Assembly: GCA_944322955.1 (NCBI GenBank)
Contig: CALUQQ010000055.1
Span: 1-50,793, forward strand
Length of the DNA: 50,793 bases
Origin: Candidatus Gastranaerophilales bacterium
Lineage (GTDB): Bacteria > Cyanobacteriota > Vampirovibrionia > Gastranaerophilales > Gastranaerophilaceae
Direction: 5' to 3'
Of the stretch, positions 1 through 40,672 are shown one piece after another. The first letter of the stretch is position 1. Each line of letters starts with the position of its first letter. Below the pieces are notes generated by a model that had not been told where the DNA came from, ran no database searches, and worked only from the letters and a program-made list of their open reading frames with translations. Made by a program: the position numbers and the translations under genes.

Positions 1-23
1 CGACCACAACTTTGTAGGTCAGA

Positions 24-141
24 TTTACTAAACCGACAGTTACCTCTTAGTGCCTTAGTATCATAGTATCTTAATAACTTCTTCCAGAAAACACCCCCAA
101 AAATCGCACTACGAGCGGTTAAAAGGGTCGCCCCCCCCCGA
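24..141 (-). repeat. Copy A of a dispersed intergenic cassette (five 8-nt units at 41-80, conserved box 109-141 including the G9 tract)
   Basis: Aligns by eye with 29686-29803 (copy B). The box ctacgagcggttaaaagggtcgcccccccccga is identical in both. Partial copies at 40623-40672 and 44019-44074. Confidence 0.8.
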
Positions 142-166
142 CGTTACTAAATTTGTTGTTTTTCAT
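119..166 (-). CDS. Short ORF MKNNKFSNVGGGRPF* containing a G9 tract; with G10 the frame stays open to the left window edge
   Basis: AAGGAG (181-176) lies 9 nt before the ATG at 166. Promoter TTGCAA(230-225)-17-TGcTAAAAT(207-202). TAA at 121-119 with 9 G. Confidence 0.4.
   Translation of the reverse strand: MKNNKFSNVGGGRPF
131..139 (-). repeat. Homopolymer G9 (C9 on + strand)
   Basis: Counted directly; flanked by TC on the minus strand (TCG9), as at 11836-11844 and 29793-29801. Confidence 0.95.
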
Positions 167-201
167 TCGTTTTTTCTCCTTTTTTATACATTTTTTATTA
201 A

Positions 202-9986: not shown

Positions 9987-11323
9987 AAAAAATTTTAAAT
10001 TTACTGTTTATACTTTTGATTACTTCATTATCAGCTAATGCAAACAGTATAGAAAATGCGATATCGGATTCACGTATAAATAAAGGAGCACTGTCGATTT
10101 CAGTTAAAGATACAGCGAACGGTAAAACGCTATACAGACTTAACAGCGATAAGCCGACAATACCTGCTTCAACATTAAAAGCAATTACGCTTGCTGCAGC
10201 TTTAAATGAACTGGGAGAAAATTACGAATTTCAAACAACACTGTACAAAACATCCGATAATGAACTTTTTTTAAAACTCGGTGCAGATCCGTTTTTAAAA
10301 TCCAAAGACCTCAAAACGCTTTTAAAAACTGCTTATGATAATAAAATTATTTCACCTAAAGCATTTTTCATAGATACAAATATCCTCGACAAAACCGAAT
10401 GGGGCGAAGGCTGGCAATGGGATGACGATTTGAATCCGCTTATGCCGAAATTCAGCGCATACAATATTGATAATAATTTGATAAAAATTATTGTAAAACC
10501 AACTGCGAAAGATGCTCCTGCTGAAATCAAACTTGACGTATTTTATCCGGTAACTTTTATGAATCTGGTAACTACCGGTAGTAAAAACGAAATAACCATA
10601 ACCCGCAATAACAGCATAGCACCTAATGTTTTGAATATTGAAGGCACTGTATCCAAACAGATTGAACGGGAAATACCGGTTAACCATCTAAAAAGATACT
10701 TTATATTAAGACTGGAAGATGCTCTGCGCTCCGAAAAAATTGATTATTACGGAAATTTTACAGAAAAAAATCTCCCTAAACAAAATACATATCAAGTTTC
10801 AAATATTTCACACCCGATGAGTTCTGCAATTGATGAAATCATGAAAAACAGCAATAACATGGCAGCAGAAACCGTGTTTAAAATCGCCGGAGGACACTAT
10901 GCAAAATCTGCCGGCAGCGCAGAAAATGCAGTTGCAATGTTTCTTGATTACTGCGAAAAACTCGGCGTGAACACTGATGACATTAAAATAGTCGACGGAA
11001 GCGGCGTTTCTAAAAATAATCTTGTAACAGCTGACTTTATGACATCTTTTTTGACCGCACAATATCAAAAAGATGCTGAATACAAAGAGATGTTTGCATC
11101 AGCAGGGCAGGGTACATTAAAAGACAGAATGCTCTATTTCGGCGATAACCTTAAAGCTAAGACAGGAACTCTCTCTGATGTCAGCGCAATTACCGGATAT
11201 CTTAAAACCGCAAAAGGGAATCTTGTGGCTTTTGATATTATAATTAACGACCCGAATTCTAAAACGTCCGATAAAAAAATGCTTGAAGAATATATCTTAA
11301 GAGCTATTCATACATCATATTAA
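9983..11323 (+). CDS. dacB: D-alanyl-D-alanine carboxypeptidase/endopeptidase (PBP4 family)
   Basis: Signal peptide, ASTLK (SxxK) and KTGT motifs; 446 aa. Confidence 0.85.
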   Translation: MKKILNLLFILLITSLSANANSIENAISDSRINKGALSISVKDTANGKTLYRLNSDKPTIPASTLKAITLAAALNELGENYEFQTTLYKTSDNELFLKLGADPFLKSKDLKTLLKTAYDNKIISPKAFFIDTNILDKTEWGEGWQWDDDLNPLMPKFSAYNIDNNLIKIIVKPTAKDAPAEIKLDVFYPVTFMNLVTTGSKNEITITRNNSIAPNVLNIEGTVSKQIEREIPVNHLKRYFILRLEDALRSEKIDYYGNFTEKNLPKQNTYQVSNISHPMSSAIDEIMKNSNNMAAETVFKIAGGHYAKSAGSAENAVAMFLDYCEKLGVNTDDIKIVDGSGVSKNNLVTADFMTSFLTAQYQKDAEYKEMFASAGQGTLKDRMLYFGDNLKAKTGTLSDVSAITGYLKTAKGNLVAFDIIINDPNSKTSDKKMLEEYILRAIHTSY

Positions 11324-11477
11324 AATATTTTTATTGGTTCTTTAACAATCATTCTGCAATCGTGGGTTACATCTTTGCAGATATCATACTGAACTTTATC
11401 TCCGCAATATTTGGCACTTTTTATATAGCCTGTTGTGCACGCTGCACGACGGAAATTCGCATCCTTCAGCAGCAGCC

Positions 11478-11855
11478 TTACCTGCGTTTACCACCCTCAA
11501 ACACATCGTACATTACGTTCGCGCTCAAATGCTCCTTACTCGTTCCGCCCGACGGCTCATCATCTTTATAAGCAGGGATTACCTTCCCGCTTTTCAATAA
11601 ATAAAACGGAAATACGTCTTTCCACAATTCACTCTTGCCTGAATTCCCGTTTACATCTACATATATCTTAAAGCCTTTTCTGTCATTCTCATCTTCTGCA
11701 TCTGACAATTCATCTATTTTTTCATAATCTGTTCCTGTTATCGGCAATGTCACGCATACCACCATAGTTATTGCAACCAAAGCAACCACCAGTTCACCTA
11801 GCGTGAAACCCAGTCTATTTGGGCTTAAAGAGCTACCCCCCCCCGATTTGTACAA
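11478..11855 (-). CDS. Prepilin-type N-terminal cleavage/methylation protein, interrupted at both ends (G9 tract at the 5' end, frameshift at the 3' end)
   Basis: ...NRLG/FTLGELVVALVAITM motif and DVNGNSGKS motif shared with the other two pilins. The in-frame start is an SD-less TTG. See findings. Confidence 0.7.
   Translation of the reverse strand: MYKSGGGSSLSPNRLGFTLGELVVALVAITMVVCVTLPITGTDYEKIDELSDAEDENDRKGFKIYVDVNGNSGKSELWKDVFPFYLLKSGKVIPAYKDDEPSGGTSKEHLSANVMYDVFEGGKRR
11836..11844 (-). repeat. Homopolymer G9 inside the prepilin leader
   Basis: Counted directly. Confidence 0.95.
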
Positions 11856-11893
11856 AAATTTTCAAATACTTTCATTTCAACTCCTTTTACTAC

Positions 11894-11922
11894 ATTATAA
11901 TAAATTAAATTATATTTTGCAA
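11894..11922 (-). promoter_or_regulatory. Consensus promoter TTGCAA-17-TATAAT for the pilin locus
   Basis: Read directly; followed by AAGGAG (11886-11881) and the ATG at 11875. Confidence 0.6.
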
Positions 11923-12000
11923 TATGCAAAACAATGCAAAACGGATTAAGATATTTTTACAATTAGGAAATCTAAAAATCTTATGCTAAACTAAAATATT

Positions 12001-12870
12001 ATGGAACCTATAGTCAGTATAATTACAACAACACATAATATAGTAGAAAAAGGCCAAGCTGATGATTTCAGTCTTCTTGTGACGCTTTTGGATATGCAAA
12101 CATATCCTAATATTGAACACATCGTTATTGATAAAGCTTCCTCAGACGATACTGTTATTCTGTTGAAAGACTACAAAAATAAAGGCTATATACAATTCTA
12201 CTCAGAATCTGACACCGGGAAATTTGACGGTTTCAATAAAGGAATTTTACGAGCAAGAGGGAAATATTTGTCGTTTATAAGCTGTGATGACTTCTATCAT
12301 GACATTACGGCCATTCAGGATATCGTAAACCTTATGGAGGCCGAAAACGCAGACTTTTCGTTTTCACCTTCATACTGCAGACACCCGGAGGGGTTTGTAT
12401 TTCTTTTTCAGCCTGCCATGTATAACGCGTTTCAGGTAATGCCATGCCCGAGACAGGCCATGTTCTTTAAAAAATCCGTGCTTGAAAAAGAAGGTTATTT
12501 TGATACAAAATTTAAGCTTATGGCTGATTATGACCTGATAATACGGCTTATGATGAAAAAATATAAAGCTGTATTTTTTGAACATAATTATACAACCTAC
12601 AAGCTTGGCGAAAAAGTAACGCAAAATGTTGAAGCCGGTAATAATGATGCAAAATTAATTTTTTATAAAAATTATAAAAATCTTTATCCGCTTAACGACG
12701 ATATACTTGACAATATGATAAAAACATCGGAATTTCCGAAAGAATTGCTTGAAAAACTGTCCGAAAGTTTTCCTGCAGAAGACAAAGAATTATTTTTTGA
12801 AAGATGTGAACAAATGCATCAATTAAGACTTGATATTGCACAAAAACAATCTATAAAGGAAACAACATGA
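12001..12870 (+). CDS. Family 2 glycosyltransferase
   Basis: VSIITTTHN...IVIDKASSDDT N-terminal GT-A signature. Confidence 0.85.
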   Translation: MEPIVSIITTTHNIVEKGQADDFSLLVTLLDMQTYPNIEHIVIDKASSDDTVILLKDYKNKGYIQFYSESDTGKFDGFNKGILRARGKYLSFISCDDFYHDITAIQDIVNLMEAENADFSFSPSYCRHPEGFVFLFQPAMYNAFQVMPCPRQAMFFKKSVLEKEGYFDTKFKLMADYDLIIRLMMKKYKAVFFEHNYTTYKLGEKVTQNVEAGNNDAKLIFYKNYKNLYPLNDDILDNMIKTSEFPKELLEKLSESFPAEDKELFFERCEQMHQLRLDIAQKQSIKETT

Positions 12871-13793
12871 AAGAACAAAAAATAGCGGTAATAGGCTGCG
12901 GACTTTGGGGAAGAAACATTGTACGGAATTTTTATAATCTGAATGTTTTGGAAATGGTCTGCGATCTTGACGACGATAACATTTCAAAAATACGAGAATT
13001 ATATCCGAATTTAACTATTACAAAGGATTTCAATGACATAATTAATAACCCTGCAATAACGTCCGTTGCGGTAGTTACCCCGAGCCATACACACTATAAA
13101 ATGGTTAAGGCAATGCTGGAAGCAGGCAAAAATGTTTACGTTGAAAAACCTATTTCAACAGTTGCACAAGAAGCAAAAGATTTGAAAGAACTTGCAGACA
13201 GCAAAGGACTTGTCTTGATGGTCGGACACCTTTTATTATACCACCCTGCCGTAAACAGATTAAAAATGCTCATTGAAGAAGGCGCTTTAGGCGATATTGT
13301 TTACGCACAAAGCGACAGATTAAATGTAAACTATTTCAAAAACGACAGAAGCGTTATGTGGGATTTAGCGCCTCATGATGTTTCAATGATGAGCTATGTA
13401 ATCGGGAAAGAACCCGTAAGAATTATCTCCGCTATCGGCAGTTCAACCGACAGAAACGATATTATGGATATAACACATCTCGGAATAGAATTTGAAGACG
13501 GTGTAATAGGACATATTACGGACAGCTGGATAACCCCGAGAAAACATGTACAATTATTAGTCAGAGGAACTAAAGCCACAGCAATTTTGGATGATACGTT
13601 ACCTGAACATAAACTGACTATTTATGATAATTATGCAGCGGATAACACAAAAAATATTACGCTTGATTATCTTGAAATTGAGCCATTAAAACTTGAATGC
13701 AAGCATTTTATAAGCTGCTGCGAATCTGGCAAAAAAGCCCGCTCTGACGGCGATAATGGATTTATGGTAACAAAAAATCTTGAACAGGCGTAA
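12867..13793 (+). CDS. Gfo/Idh/MocA-family NAD(P)-dependent oxidoreductase
   Basis: IAVIGCGLWG Rossmann N-terminus and EKP motif; 4-nt overlap with the GT2 gene. Confidence 0.85.
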   Translation: MKEQKIAVIGCGLWGRNIVRNFYNLNVLEMVCDLDDDNISKIRELYPNLTITKDFNDIINNPAITSVAVVTPSHTHYKMVKAMLEAGKNVYVEKPISTVAQEAKDLKELADSKGLVLMVGHLLLYHPAVNRLKMLIEEGALGDIVYAQSDRLNVNYFKNDRSVMWDLAPHDVSMMSYVIGKEPVRIISAIGSSTDRNDIMDITHLGIEFEDGVIGHITDSWITPRKHVQLLVRGTKATAILDDTLPEHKLTIYDNYAADNTKNITLDYLEIEPLKLECKHFISCCESGKKARSDGDNGFMVTKNLEQA

Positions 13794-13905
13794 AAAATGA
13801 TGCTCGGAAAAAAAAAAAAAAAACTTGATGAAGTTGACTTCGGACTTTCAAGAGTAAAACAGCATTTGTAAAAAAAAAACGCCCCTAAAGGGCAAGGAGA
13901 AGATT

Positions 13906-26288: not shown

Positions 26289-27017
26289 TTATCTTAAAAT
26301 CATGTCGTCATTAATTTCCCAATTATGTCGAATAATATAAGAAAAACAATAATAACCGCGCCCGCCGTCTGAACAATCAGCATCAACTTCGTCATTAGAT
26401 TTGTCCGAACCTGCCGGCAAAAGATTTCTGTTATTAAACACAAACACAAAAATATCTCGTCCGATAACATTCGGGCCGGAATCACCATTTACATCAACAT
26501 GCATAACAAGCCCGGCTTTATCCATTTCAACTCCGAAATTATCTTCAATATCCTGCGCACTGGCACCGTCCATATTAACATAAACATTATCAAGCGTTTG
26601 AAAAACAATTATATTACCGCCAATTCCTTTAGTGCCTTCATCCCAAATCGCAGTCTGACCGTTCAATTGTTTAGTGACGCCTTCCTTATGCCAGCAGCCC
26701 GGAGTGTCATCCAGACAGTCTTTTTGTATACGTAAATTAGGTTTCAAATAATAATTATACCAATTTTTCATACTTTCATTATTACCGTCCTCAAAATCAA
26801 CGTATGAATAACCCAAATTATCTGCTACGGTTTTTTGAATAGCCTGCTGCAAAACCGAATAAGTTTTTTTCAATTTTGTAATTGTTACAACGCGCTTGTA
26901 ATCCTTAATCAATGTCGGAATAGTCATTGCGGCAACAATTCCGATAACACCAAGTGTTATCAAAACTTCCGCAAGAGTAAATGCCGTATGAAATTTATTA
27001 ACACAAAATCTGGACAT
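26289..27017 (-). CDS. Prepilin-type N-terminal cleavage/methylation protein
   Basis: MSRFCVNKFHTA/FTLAEVLITLGVIGIVAAMTIPTL and DVNGDSGPN motif. I prefer the ATG at 27017 over the TTG at 27047. Confidence 0.8.
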   Translation of the reverse strand: MSRFCVNKFHTAFTLAEVLITLGVIGIVAAMTIPTLIKDYKRVVTITKLKKTYSVLQQAIQKTVADNLGYSYVDFEDGNNESMKNWYNYYLKPNLRIQKDCLDDTPGCWHKEGVTKQLNGQTAIWDEGTKGIGGNIIVFQTLDNVYVNMDGASAQDIEDNFGVEMDKAGLVMHVDVNGDSGPNVIGRDIFVFVFNNRNLLPAGSDKSNDEVDADCSDGGRGYYCFSYIIRHNWEINDDMILR

Positions 27018-27414
27018 GAACTGTTCTGGTCCTCGCTTTATTATCAAAATCTACCAACACGATTTGCTGCCACTGCCCTAATTGCAAAGCTCCTTCCAAT
27101 AGAGGCACCATTGTAGAATTACCTACAATTGAAGCTCTGATATGAGAATAACCGTTTCCATCATGCCACATCTCATCATGATGATATTCTTTATTAACCG
27201 GCACAATTTTATCCAAAATTTCCGGCAAATCTTTTAACAAACCAGGTTCATACTCAATATTTGTAATTGAAACAGTGCTGCCGGCGACATACACATATAC
27301 AACCGCATCTTTCAATGAATGCCTGTATACAAGATTTTTCACCTCGTTAGTAACATCGATAATATCAGTATTACCTTTAGTATGTACTGTAAATTTTTCA
27401 CAAATTATTGTCAT
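26998..27414 (-). CDS. yjbQ: YjbQ/UPF0047 family protein (secondary thiamine-phosphate synthase-like)
   Basis: 138 aa with the family-typical ...YHHDEMWHDGNGYSHIRASIVG... block. Confidence 0.8.
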   Translation of the reverse strand: MTIICEKFTVHTKGNTDIIDVTNEVKNLVYRHSLKDAVVYVYVAGSTVSITNIEYEPGLLKDLPEILDKIVPVNKEYHHDEMWHDGNGYSHIRASIVGNSTMVPLLEGALQLGQWQQIVLVDFDNKARTRTVHVQILC

Positions 27415-28777: not shown

Positions 28778-29521
28778 TTATAATCTTGATCTGCCGTAAA
28801 GCCATGTAATATAATAACATTTCCCTGAAGGGCACCAGCGCTCTTTTATCGTGATATCATGATTCATGCTTGGTTTTACCATATCCGGCACAGAATCCGA
28901 ATACGGTGACGAATTGTTTGCTGACATTGCAAACCCGAATCTGTCTTTTCCGAGTTGATTCGGACCTTTAAAACCGTTAGTATCGACTAAAAATACCGGT
29001 TCATTACTTGAATACATCTTCCAATTGCGGCCTTGAGCGTCAATAAACGAATATTCCCCCTGACATACGATTGTACCTTTAAAATTTTCGTCAACATGAG
29101 TAATATATGCCTGCTCAGCGTCTTTGCATTTCCAGCAGATGTCACCGTATTCTCTATCAAAACACGTTTTGGTTGCTTTAAAATATTTTGCCAGGATTTT
29201 AAAGTTTTCAGCATAATTAGGGGAATAACCAGGCTTTGGATTACCTTCTTCATCATTTATAAAAACAATTTTTTGCAAAGAAGTTCCGTCGGCCAACAGC
29301 ATCTTGAATGCCTGATTTACGTCGCTGAATGCTGCTTTATAGGCGTTTTTATAGACAAAATCCTGCATATTTGATATCAAAGTCGGAATTGTCATGGCTG
29401 CCACAACACCGATTATGCCAAGAGTAATTAAGACTTCGGCAAGAGTAAAAGCTGCTTTTTTTGAAGTAAATAAGGTAGTAGGGGAATAATGGAATAAGTG
29501 TTTTCTGTGTGCATCGCACAA
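28778..29521 (-). CDS. Prepilin-type N-terminal cleavage/methylation protein
   Basis: ...TSKKAA/FTLAEVLITLGIIGVVAAMTIPTL and DTNGFKGPN motif. The only in-frame start is the TTG at 29521, 8 nt after GAGGGG. Confidence 0.75.
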   Translation of the reverse strand: MCDAHRKHLFHYSPTTLFTSKKAAFTLAEVLITLGIIGVVAAMTIPTLISNMQDFVYKNAYKAAFSDVNQAFKMLLADGTSLQKIVFINDEEGNPKPGYSPNYAENFKILAKYFKATKTCFDREYGDICWKCKDAEQAYITHVDENFKGTIVCQGEYSFIDAQGRNWKMYSSNEPVFLVDTNGFKGPNQLGKDRFGFAMSANNSSPYSDSVPDMVKPSMNHDITIKERWCPSGKCYYITWLYGRSRL

Positions 29522-29602
29522 GGGGCTTACCCCTCACCTTGAGGGCGGGGGTTGAATTTCAACACCAGCTTGCGAGTGTTTGAAATTCGGGGACGGGGTC
29601 GC
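29521..29602. repeat. REP/MITE-like double-hairpin module (copy 1)
   Basis: GAATTTCAACAC-10 nt-GTGTTTGAAATTC (29554-29588) flanked by G/C-rich short hairpins. Homologous to 40544-40609 in the opposite orientation relative to the neighbouring repeat. Confidence 0.7.
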
Positions 29603-29685
29603 ATTTTTTGAGATCCTTCGGCTATCGCCTCAGGATGACAAGACAAATTCCTCCAATGCCCAGTGCGTTGTCCCGACTTTTGCAG

Positions 29686-29803
29686 TTTACTAACCCGACT
29701 GTTACTTCTTAGTGCCTTAGTGCCATAGTATCTTAGTATCTTTTTCCAATAGATACCTTCGAAACTTCCTCTACGAGCGGTTAAAAGGGTCGCCCCCCCC
29801 CGA
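29686..29803 (-). repeat. Copy B of the dispersed cassette (8-nt units 29703-29742; conserved box 29771-29803 with G9 at 29793-29801)
   Basis: Aligned by eye with 24-141. Confidence 0.8.
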
Positions 29804-29828
29804 GATCCATACTAATCATATCTGCCAT
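29781..29828 (-). CDS. Short ORF MADMISMDLGGGRPF* containing a G9 tract; G10 gives a 102-codon frame ending 5 nt before the pilin TTG
   Basis: AGGAGG (29840-29835) lies 6 nt before the ATG at 29828, which starts 2 nt after the obg stop. Internal promoter at 29847-29874. Confidence 0.4.
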   Translation of the reverse strand: MADMISMDLGGGRPF

Positions 29829-29830
29829 TT

Positions 29831-31120
29831 CTACCCTCCTGAATACATTTTATCATCAAAATATTCCATTTCAAGGTGACCTATGACGATTGTGTCGCCG
29901 TCTTTTACACCTTGTTTTTTCAGCTCCTCAAATACACCCATGCCGGTAAGAATATTTTGCAGCCTAATAATCTGTTCGGTATTTCTTGCATCCGTAACCG
30001 CCGCGAGCCGTCTTATTTTGCCGCCGTCCACAATGTATGTGTCTTTTGCAGTTTTATAAATTTCAAAAGCACTATCGTCATTATTATAAGCAGCAAAATC
30101 TTCTTCCACAACAATATCTGATACGTGATGCTCAATCTCATCCACTTTAACCGCCATAAAATCAAGCAGTTTATCAAGATTTTCGCCTGTTACGGCAGAA
30201 ATAAGGAAAACGTCCTTTGCGGCTTTTTTAAACTCAGCCGACAATTCATCCTGTATTGCTTTATCAACCGCGTCAATTTTATTCAAAACAACAATTTGAT
30301 ATAGATTAGCAAGCTTTTCGGAATGTTTTTCAAGCTCTGAAATAATTATTTCATAATTTCTAAAAGGGTTGTCTGCCGTAATATCAACAAGATGGACAAG
30401 AAAACGGCAGCGTTCAATATGACGCAAAAATTCATGCCCCAGCCCGACACCTTCAGACGCACCTTCAATCAAACCCGGAATATCTGCAACCACATAACCG
30501 TCACCCGAGCGTTTTTTCACCACGCCCAGATTAGGAATTAATGTAGTGAAAGGATAATCGGCGATTTTGGGTTTGGCGGAAGAAATTCTGCTTATAAGTG
30601 TTGATTTTCCTGCATTCGGCATACCTAAAAGCCCGACATCCGCAATTAATTTCAATTCGAGCTCAAGTTCGCGTTCAATGCCCGGTTCTCCCGGTTCACA
30701 AAACTGCGGGGCACGTTTTTGAGCGGTTGCGAATCTTGCATTTCCCCTGCCGCCTCTGCCGCCTTTGGCAACAAGAACTTTTTGTTCGTGTTCTGTTAAA
30801 TCAGCAATGGCCTTACCGGTTTTCAAATCTCTGACAACCGTTCCCACAGGAACTTTTATCACTAAATCTTTAGCACATTTGCCATGCATATTTTTAATAC
30901 TGCCGTTTTCGCCGTTTTCTGCTTTAAATACAGATTTATATTTAAAATCCATCAACGTTGACATATTTTCGTCCGCAATCAAATAGACATCACCGCCGGA
31001 ACCGCCGTCCCCGCCTGCCGGGCCGCCTTTATCTACATATTTTTCGCGACGCCAGGCAACCATACCGTTTCCGCCTCGTCCTGAAATAATTTTTATTCCG
31101 GTTTTGTCTAAAAATTGCAT
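29831..31120 (-). CDS. obg: GTPase Obg/CgtA
   Basis: MQFLDKTGIKIISGRGGNG N-terminus, GMPNAGKST, DIPGLIEGA, NKID. Confidence 0.96.
   Translation of the reverse strand: MQFLDKTGIKIISGRGGNGMVAWRREKYVDKGGPAGGDGGSGGDVYLIADENMSTLMDFKYKSVFKAENGENGSIKNMHGKCAKDLVIKVPVGTVVRDLKTGKAIADLTEHEQKVLVAKGGRGGRGNARFATAQKRAPQFCEPGEPGIERELELELKLIADVGLLGMPNAGKSTLISRISSAKPKIADYPFTTLIPNLGVVKKRSGDGYVVADIPGLIEGASEGVGLGHEFLRHIERCRFLVHLVDITADNPFRNYEIIISELEKHSEKLANLYQIVVLNKIDAVDKAIQDELSAEFKKAAKDVFLISAVTGENLDKLLDFMAVKVDEIEHHVSDIVVEEDFAAYNNDDSAFEIYKTAKDTYIVDGGKIRRLAAVTDARNTEQIIRLQNILTGMGVFEELKKQGVKDGDTIVIGHLEMEYFDDKMYSGG
29847..29874 (-). promoter_or_regulatory. Promoter TTGAAA-16-TAAAAT embedded in the obg 3' end
   Basis: Read directly from the minus strand. 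Confidence 0.5.
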
Positions 31121-40543: not shown

Positions 40544-40609
40544 GAATTTCTAACACTCGCAAAGCTCGTGTGAAATTTTTTCCCCGTCCTCAAGGGGTGG
40601 GGAAATAGC
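40544..40609. repeat. REP/MITE-like double-hairpin module (copy 2)
   Basis: gaatttctaacactcgcaaagctcgtgtgaaatt...ccccgtcctcaaggggtgggg aligns with the reverse complement of 29521-29602. Confidence 0.65.
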
Positions 40610-40622
40610 TTATAGGTCGGCA

Positions 40623-40672
40623 TTTACTATGCTGACAGTAAATTCTTAGTGCCTATAATATCTTAATAACTT
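40623..40672 (-). repeat. Copy C (partial; 8-nt-unit segment only, one unit deleted)
   Basis: tttactatgctgacagtaaattcttagtgcctataatatcttaataactt aligns with 24-80 and 29686-29742. Confidence 0.7.
40632..40659 (+). promoter_or_regulatory. Candidate aspS promoter CTGACA-16-TATAAT, formed inside repeat copy C
   Basis: Hexamers read directly, 87 nt upstream of the aspS ATG. Confidence 0.45.

Follow-up and report, generated by a model that had tools for sequence, protein, structure and literature searches.

In the AT-rich genomes of Campylobacter jejuni and Helicobacter pylori, many surface-structure genes carry G/C homopolymers of 8-13 bases. The lic genes of Haemophilus influenzae show a multiple-start 'volume control', in which alternative frames give strong, weak or no expression. 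In these bacteria, the repeats arose independently in unrelated genes. Here, we describe a related layout in a 50,793-nt contig of a gut Gastranaerophilales bacterium (Melainabacteria; CALUQQ010000055.1, positions 1 to 50,793, hereafter the window). Its subject, locus 2, is a type IV pilin-like (pseudopilin-like) gene on the minus strand, with a run of nine G (G9, 11844-11836) in its leader codons. Homologs of the neighbouring glycosyltransferase bear the names Candidatus Gastranaerophilales bacterium and "Clostridium sp. CAG:729", in line with a gut Melainabacterium as the source. Two paralogous cassettes in the same window are referred to as loci 1 and 3. In contrast to the Campylobacter, Helicobacter and Haemophilus repeats, one homologous 5' cassette moves here with a single gene family, for example as a 1.05-kb unit at locus 3 (29840-28778). 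With a probability of roughly 0.6, we read the G9 run as a slippage-prone homopolymer in a slipped-strand phase-variation cassette, of which the locus-2 copy is decaying.

Among known systems, neisserial pilC with its poly-G tract comes closest; there, too, the tract length sets the frame on or off (PMC5320596). Strain lengths of pilC range from G9 to G15 and some strains have interrupted tracts, as do the cassettes described here (PMC5320596). The protein is a different one, since PilC is described there as a pilus assembly protein, not as a pilin-like subunit (PMC5320596). The tract here also differs in that it lies in a prepilin (class III) leader, in a cassette common to several paralogs and species of an unrelated phylum. 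Moreover, TTG starts are found here in other frames, leaders reach up to 70-100 codons, and switching is a prediction. Gonococcal pgtA has pure poly-G alleles versus interrupted GGGAGCGGG alleles of the same length, in which the state is locked (PMC2193922; PMC5320596). Cassettes 1 and 3 resemble it, with GGGGGGGGG versus GGGAGGGGG or GGGGGGGGA alleles. The interrupted form of pgtA is locked on (PMC2193922; PMC5320596), whereas here the locked register is the one in which the ATG, with its Shine-Dalgarno (SD) sequence, reads a short dead-end open reading frame (ORF). Comparison of tracts between strains is an accepted way to nominate translational phase-variable genes (PMC5320596).

The promoter-like site, SD, ATG, G9 tract and TAA stop proposed for locus 2 by an earlier sequence-only reading were all located on the minus strand (Table 1). 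The promoter-like site was the top-scoring one within 11200-12100. Four weaker sites were found in the same region, not more than in shuffled sequences (4.2). The site was unchanged in eight other samples, and its -10 element was gone in L001 and L039. From the ATG, the tract is 31 nt away. When the tract was varied in silico from G5 to G12, the ATG shifted into and out of the pilin frame. At G10, it reads MKVFENFCTNRGGGSSLSPNRLG/FTLGELVVALVAITM..., the slash marking the predicted cleavage site, and G7 is likewise in frame; the ATG frame at either length can be written as MKVFENFCTNRGG(G)SSLSPNRLG/FTLGELVVALVAITM... Recomputation thus reproduced two further claims, namely that one extra G fuses the ATG to a prepilin leader ending in Gly, with Phe+1 and Glu+5, and that at G9 only a TTG without SD (11855) is in frame for the pilin. 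Every tract length leaves some start codon in frame: the ATG at G7 and G10, and one of two SD-less TTGs at the other lengths (Table 1). These TTGs are the starts chosen by gene callers, yielding proteins of 128 aa (P0004) and 125 aa (P0001). The predicted tract-spanning peptides of the cassette genes are ...NRGG(G)SSLSPNR, MNFRGGGASC... and MKKQTMIEFPGGGAS...

An ancestral state was provided by a sister lineage, whose glycosyltransferase is 82% identical. There, the S13 peptidase and glycosyltransferase genes flank an intact counterpart at the same position, which encodes 432 or 429 aa (L052 and L053). It starts with GAGGAG-N5-ATG, reads MKSFLIRFINKK...SG/FTLGEL and has no G run. Its leader is 21 aa long (MKSFLIRFINKKASKLTHHSG/FTLGELTIALVVVTLVVMVTLPIT), with the mature part beginning FTLGEL. 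Both the window ATG frame, MKVFENFCTNR... (MK.F.....N[KR]), and the post-tract pilin frame (.S.L....G/FTLGEL) align to this leader, which argues that translation originally passed from the ATG through the tract position. Judged by this alignment, ATG 11875 is the real ancestral start of the pilin. Orthology with an intact gene therefore backs the proposal that the ATG is the true start.

The N-terminus of locus 2 (...NRLG/FTLGELVVALVAITMVVCVTLPIT) has a leader of the Gly/Ala-ended type, Phe+1, Glu+5 and a hydrophobic helix of ~20 residues. At least four proteins encoded in the window have an (A or G)/FTLxE N-terminus. Alone, the locus-2 protein had no Pfam match and only a weak match to ComGE (E = 0.039). 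A profile of its small family matched that of the N_methyl-containing locus-3 pilin family by hhalign with 97% probability (E = 3e-11). In the latter family, which has more than 7,500 members, 12 of 12 members matched N_methyl. The locus-3 pilin itself scored 23.3 bits against Pfam N_methyl (PF07963), for which the cut-off is 21.2, and also passed the TIGR02532 cut-off. The genes pilA, pilB, pilC, pilD and pilT have been reported from Gastranaerophilales genomes (PMC5877343).

Contigs from other samples were chosen by their carrying an identical glycosyltransferase, and together with the window they gave nine locus-2 alleles. Samples carrying the species include ERZ16268105/175/179/289, ERZ17292901-905, ERR10610487/559, SRR14620902 and SRR14506605. 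Tract lengths were polymorphic: G7 in L009, G8 in three contigs (L002, L003 and L010) and G9 in five (L004, L005, L007, L008 and the window). None of the nine had G10. Two flanking single-nucleotide polymorphisms (SNPs) separated the alleles into three haplotypes, with lengths of 9,9,9, of 8,9,7 and of 8,9,8, so that a haplotype had more than one length or lengths common to others. Because the same lengths are mixed across SNP haplotypes, the tract length must have changed repeatedly.

Such runs are rare. The window has 36.6% G+C and contains exactly three G/C runs longer than six, each of them a minus-strand G9 (139-131, 11844-11836 and 29801-29793); the expectation from composition is 0.02-0.03. 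Each of the three lies 27-31 nt past an SD and ATG, with pilin-like sequence downstream. Cassette tracts aside, no further G/C run of at least seven was found in 248 kb of related loci. A search for the exact 19-mer CGACCCTTTTAACCGCTCG gave only chance matches in unrelated taxa, in genome and metagenome contig collections that do not hold cassettes of the window species.

At cassettes 1 and 3, the G9 run is followed by CGACCCTTTTAACCGCTCGTAG. The two are 84% identical over 118 nt, and each has a 15-codon ORF ending ...GGGRPF. The alleles at locus 1 were G9 or G8A, always 9 nt in total, and seven of the eight other samples had GGGAGGGGG at locus 3, with the same length as G9. After the tract, the similarity of locus 2 to loci 1 and 3 is weak (~57% by eye), and a MAFFT alignment was unconvincing. 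A common origin of the three window cassettes is likely. With one G added to cassette 1 of L020 (ERZ16268105), the ATG opens an ORF that runs without a stop across an 85-aa leader into KRVA/FTLAEV. The pilin frame is open there for 78 codons, for which composition alone would give a probability of ~0.004. The pilin-like genes of loci 1 and 3 have their own GTG or TTG starts, with GGGAGGGG or GGTGAGGGG 7-8 nt upstream in a predicted hairpin; GGTGAGGGG is the one preceding the locus-3 TTG. It is plausible, as modelled, that SD-containing hairpins stand ahead of the locus-1 and locus-3 pilin starts.

The cassette was also found in other Gastranaerophilales lineages. Called homologs of the locus-3 pilin that start with or contain ...RGGGA... 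are P0188, P0194, P0185, P0187, P0173 and P0170. In a second lineage (L057-L062), two adjacent pilin-like genes, A and B, each have TATAAT, AAGGAGG, ATG, ~10 codons and poly-G. Between the tract and (N or K)PA/FTLAEV, an open leader of ~260 nt follows in both. The gene-A tract was G12 in four of the six contigs and G13 in one, where an adjacent C-to-G change left the total length the same; L057 had a different G9 cassette. For gene B, three contigs had G12, two (L061 and L062) had G11 and one had G9. The pair ERZ1740143 and ERZ1740155, of high coverage (35-59x), has G12 versus G11 at this gene. Three of the contigs, L058, L059 and L061, were identical over 3.8 kb apart from this tract, with G12, G9 and G11, respectively. 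At G11, gene B forms a single 288-aa ORF from the SD-ATG (MKKQTMIEFPGGGASCNPAPV...). At G12 or G9, the ATG reads the short ORF MKKQTMIEFPGGGGVL, and a TTG 10 nt ahead of the tract is in frame. In a third lineage, the SD-ATG of L064 is in frame through G11 and a ~100-codon leader to RKRVA/FTLAEV (327 aa), and that of L063 is out of the pilin frame. Natural alleles with the ATG joined to the pilin were therefore present in three lineages (L009, L061/L062 and L064).

The locus-2 copy itself has been damaged. Compared with the sister ortholog, its N-terminus was kept (61% identity) and ~250 central residues were lost. Residues 48-185 of the repaired protein, including the C-terminal remnant, are 66% identical to sister residues 295-432. 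A 1-nt deletion at 11484/11483, a second frameshift outside of repeats, stops the pilin frame at 11478 and cuts off the conserved four-Cys C-terminus. Since the window, L002, L005, L007 and L039 all have this deletion, it must be a genuine allele, not a fault of the window contig. In L001 and L039, as well as in four similar contigs, a 234-nt deletion removed the -10 element, SD, ATG, tract and helix, and L001 has an additional 34-nt deletion. Such strains lack the 5' half of the gene. A second sister lineage has no gene in the locus-2 slot. Due to the central loss and the separate C-terminal frameshift, G10 or G7 in the window contig would, by its predicted reading, still give no full-length protein.

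Several features of a contingency locus were found together: a homopolymer of at least ~7 bases in the 5' part of the coding sequence after the start, recurrent length differences, and shifting of the start between frames. In the proposed mechanism, replication slippage would alter the G count. Only lengths of 1 mod 3 (G7 and G10) would link the strong SD and ATG to the prepilin frame. At other lengths, the ATG would lead into a dead-end ORF of 13-16 codons and only an SD-less TTG would be in frame, so that expression would be off or at best weak. Since the tract lies within the cleaved leader, in-frame length changes would leave the mature protein unaltered. The window contig would hold the switch at an off length (G9), in a gene that is also decaying. 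We infer that slippage is reversible in populations, that it gates translation and that it has, or once had, adaptive value.

The slipped-strand contingency layout suggested by the sequence-only reading gains support from the ATG orthology, from the G7/G8/G9 polymorphism and from alleles of related species that differ only in tract length. Its application to a working pilin gene stood in part: the anatomy and the polymorphism agree with it, but the locus-2 copy could not yield a full-length protein at any slip. A functional product of the switched gene is to be expected from the related genes in L058-L064, not from this copy. The tract probably predates the decay, because other lineages have the same cassette on intact genes, as on and as off alleles. 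It would then be part of a functional design, even if the locus-2 copy is now dead. In practice, locus 2 is best entered as a frameshifted pilin-like pseudogene with an off-state tract, not as a 125-aa protein.

A number of points weigh against a switch. Cassettes 1 and 3 showed no length variation (5 and 9 alleles, window included), and most of their alleles are interrupted. The ATG is in frame in just one of the nine locus-2 alleles (L009, G7), and its SD is weakened to AAGAAG. In view of the extra lesions, the locus-2 gene may be dead and neutral drift may account for its length variation. In both deeply sampled species, lengths of 0 mod 3 (G9 or G12), at which the SD-ATG reads the short ORF, are the majority of alleles, so the short ORF could be the functional state. 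An SD-like 4-mer precedes only 16 of the 36 long window ORFs, and initiation at an SD-less TTG is therefore not dismissible. Furthermore, all the evidence comes from consensus contigs, so that heterogeneity within populations and reversibility are predictions. Several of the contigs are Illumina or Logan assemblies of low coverage (2-3x), in which the length of a poly-G run may be miscalled.

Some of these points would be accommodated if the SD-ATG short ORF were a regulatory upstream ORF in its normal, selected state. The pilin would then be translated from the TTG shortly ahead of the tract, or from a downstream TTG or GTG with a hairpin-held SD. The poly-G would encode the Gly-Gly-Gly of a leader peptide or pair with C-rich parts of the leader, and no frame would be switched. 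This explanation is unlikely but remains credible, because the 0 mod 3 register dominates both deeply sampled species and is locked at loci 1 and 3, whose interrupted GGGAGGGGG and GGGGGGGGA alleles retain ...G(G/R)GRPF before the stop. In the second lineage, gene A has G12 in four of six contigs and gene B has G12 or G9 in four of six. A TTG 10-11 nt ahead of the tract is in frame at the 0 mod 3 lengths in both species, every cassette has a stop within ~12 nt past the tract, and the locus-1 and locus-3 pilins have the GTG or TTG starts with hairpin-held GGGAGGGG or GGTGAGGGG described above. An upstream ORF does not, however, explain why the sister ortholog starts its pilin at the ATG, why the ATG and pilin are fused in alleles of three lineages, or why, in long leaders, no stop interrupts the pilin frame as it crosses the tract. 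The predicted folds of the three leaders did not exceed shuffled sequences in stability (z = -0.6 to -0.8), and Rfam gave no match over the leaders at gathering or E-value thresholds. Coupling of a longer upstream ORF to the pilin start works for the window allele of locus 3 alone. A plain pseudogene, in which the tract varies as neutral noise in dead DNA and never had a switching role, appears rather improbable to us. It would fit the loss of ~250 central residues, the C-terminus-truncating deletion shared by five contigs, the 234-nt and 34-nt deletions, the absence of the gene from another sister lineage and the mutated SD of the sole in-frame allele. It fits less well with three G9 runs at equivalent leader positions of paralogous pilins, each very unlikely by chance, and with the intact genes of other lineages that keep the cassette with both on and off alleles.

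If the template stays G9, the in-frame product could come from RNA polymerase slippage that gives some transcripts an extra G, or from a programmed -1 shift of the ribosome on G GGG GGG. Polymerase slippage is known on A/T runs, and 9-13 identical bases are within that range. In dnaX, insertion sequence (IS) transposases and Shigella mxiE, which use frameshifting or slippage, the slippery site is of conserved length and usually accompanied by a stimulatory structure. The cassettes resemble these cases in that a homopolymer puts the start codon out of frame by one nucleotide; the difference is that the length varies here and no structure was detected. At all three window cassettes, the ATG is one G short of the pilin frame, the distances being 68, 257 and 371 nt (all 2 mod 3). 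Still, we regard this route as very improbable. Tract lengths vary (7, 8 and 9 here; 9, 11 and 12 elsewhere), G8 would call for a different shift from G9, and the sister ortholog is without any tract. The required shift also changes sign from one species to another, being +1 G in the window species and -1 G in L058. At loci 1 and 3, interrupted alleles are unable to slip, every frame is closed before the pilin at locus 3, and the fold of 11892-11760 was not significant (z = -0.8 against shuffles; no Rfam match). The earlier suggestion of programmed -1 frameshifting is accordingly not supported. The remaining alternative, a plain G10 (or G7) with an intact gene start miscalled as G9, is the least probable of all. 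Homopolymers are indeed error-prone, some supporting contigs have a coverage of just 2-3x, and a neighbouring gene of the window contig has a suspicious A-biased cluster with an A16 run. On the other hand, independent assemblies gave G9 five times, G8 three times, G7 once and G10 never. The A-interrupted alleles at loci 1 and 3 (GGGAGGGGG or GGGGGGGGA) equal G9 in total length, which argues against systematic under-calling of G9, and the second frameshift is common to five contigs.

More generally, an SD, an ATG, ~8-20 codons and poly-G appear to have been put before many pilin-like genes in the clade. A wider interpretation, which we hold only tentatively, is that of a modular, duplicating 5' cassette (promoter, SD, ATG, few codons and poly-G of 9-13) with strong ATG, weak TTG and off states. 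Together with exceptionally long leaders of 70-100 codons, built from short mobile repeat modules and cleaved at (A or G)/FTLxE, it might form a clade-wide phase-variable repertoire of pilin-like surface proteins in an uncultured non-photosynthetic relative of cyanobacteria, with locus 2 as a decaying member. If the switch exists, uncultured gut Melainabacteria would vary a pilin-like surface family by homopolymer slippage, as Neisseria, Campylobacter and Helicobacter do, and strong fluctuating selection on the cell surface would be implied, for example by phages, host immunity or attachment. A full-text search of an open-access literature collection found no report of poly-G phase variation of pilin-like genes in Melainabacteria. 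For annotation, the starts chosen by gene callers vary with the tract length, so that what are essentially identical genes come out at 125, 128, 276, 281-288, 327 and 354 aa. ORFs are also extended through repeat modules, and contigs break at cassette leaders.

Table 1 Positions of the locus-2 features and of the paralogous cassettes in the window. SEQ tokens stand for sequences; a slash marks the predicted cleavage site.
Feature	Positions	Strand	Remarks
Locus 2, promoter-like site	TTGCAA 11922-11917, 17-nt spacer, TATAAT 11899-11894	-	10/12 consensus positions matched
Locus 2, SD and ATG	AAGGAG 11886-11881, ATG 11875-11873	-	Ancestral start codon, judged by the sister-lineage ortholog
Locus 2, 16-codon ORF from the ATG at G9, MKVFENFCTNRGGVAL	11825..11875	-	Stop TAA 11827-11825
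Locus 2, G9 homopolymer inside leader-peptide codons	11836..11844	-	Sister ortholog has AAA AAG G (Lys-Lys) there
Locus 2, SD-less TTG starts	11853..11865	-	TTG 11865-11863 in pilin frame at G8/G11; TTG 11855-11853 at G9/G12
Locus 2, pilin-frame ORF as present, 125 aa from TTG, ending GGKRR	11478..11855	-	
Locus 2, prepilin-type cleavage motif G/FTLGE (Gly-1, Phe+1, Glu+5), then hydrophobic helix	11793..11810	-	
Locus 2, 1-nt deletion, non-repeat second frameshift	11483..11484	-	AAACGC^AGG here; AAACGCGAGG in L003, AAACGTGAGG in L001
Locus 2, out-of-frame Cys-rich C-terminus remnant, VRLLLKDANFRRAACTTGYIKSAKYCGDKVQYDICKDVTHDCRMIVKEPIKIF	11320..11482	-	Conserved also in P0002 and P0003 (275-aa relatives)
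Cassette 1: AAGGAG, ATG 166-164, G9 139-131, short ORF MKNNKFSNVGGGRPF ending 119	119..181	-	Pilin-like gene past window start
Cassette 3: AGGAGGG, ATG 29828-29826, G9 29801-29793, short ORF MADMISMDLGGGRPF	29781..29840	-	
Locus-3 pilin-like gene, own TTG start, leader MCDAHRKHLFHYSPTTLFTSKKAA/FTLAEV	28778..29521	-	

The locus-3 unit 29840-28778 (~1.05 kb), comprising SD, ATG, short ORF, G9, spacer and pilin, is an insertion between obg and an amidohydrolase gene when compared with a sister lineage, and starts exactly at its SD. In that lineage, obg is directly followed by the amidohydrolase gene, with 8 nt (TAATTAAA) at the site. The insertion alters the last residues of Obg (429 aa vs 427 aa). 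Its spacer of ~330 nt has stops in all frames. As coding sequence, the spacer was ruled out by indels of 68 nt and 8 nt among strains, and translational bypassing or intron-like removal of it was dropped for want of any supporting feature. In the window allele, which combines the pure G9 with an 8-nt duplication, G10 would lengthen the short ORF to 100 codons. That ORF would stop 5 nt before the pilin TTG (29521), within the SD-containing hairpin. Such coupling fails in the seven other alleles tested and was rejected as coincidence. A riboswitch, or a G-tract/C-tract anti-sequestering structure, was likewise dropped, as the folds were no better than shuffles.

The leaders of loci 1 and 3 (window 1-118 and 29522-29792, minus strand) are mosaics of short repeat modules. 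Their modules include AAGTTATTAAGATACTAT..GGCACTAAGA..GTCGG and CCCC..TCAAGG..GGGG as well as hairpins such as TTTCAAACACTCGCAAGCTGGTGTTGAAA. The intergenic region ~40560-40670 (minus strand), where no pilin gene is found, has one copy. Strains differ by the presence of a 68-nt module and by duplication of the 8-nt GGCACTAA. Assembly often ends at leader repeat modules, in the window too, and many called homolog ORFs cross modules that translate as TRHSERSEGATHVDTLDFALSS. In P0169, P0185 and P0187, the N-terminal motif is doubled around an inserted segment (…AFTLAE-GATHVDTCDGKRKI-AFTLAEVLITLG…), which suggests that a repeat module may insert into, or recombine at, AFTLAE-encoding DNA.

Several pilin-like paralogs of the window species look disrupted in the assembled sequences. 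In L020 (3597-3790, minus strand), the locus-1 pilin-like gene, whose C-terminal part matches DUF6613, is split by a frameshift after ...NQAIKMDS. The locus-3 pilin of another assembly is present as fragments of 160 aa and 106 aa (P0023 and P0025).

The A-biased cluster in the window contig lies at 13777-13823 of the GFO_IDH_MocA gene (12867-13871, plus strand), as a group of mostly-to-A differences from three other samples. It creates the A16 run (13808-13823) and a premature TAA (13791-13793), giving an ORF of 308 aa instead of 334 aa. The cluster is probably a local artefact of the assembly or the reads and not a biological change. A fourth pilin-like gene of the window (26289-27047, minus strand; MSRFCVNKFHTA/FTLAEV...) is without a poly-G cassette, and its ATG overlaps the end of an upstream YjbQ-family gene.

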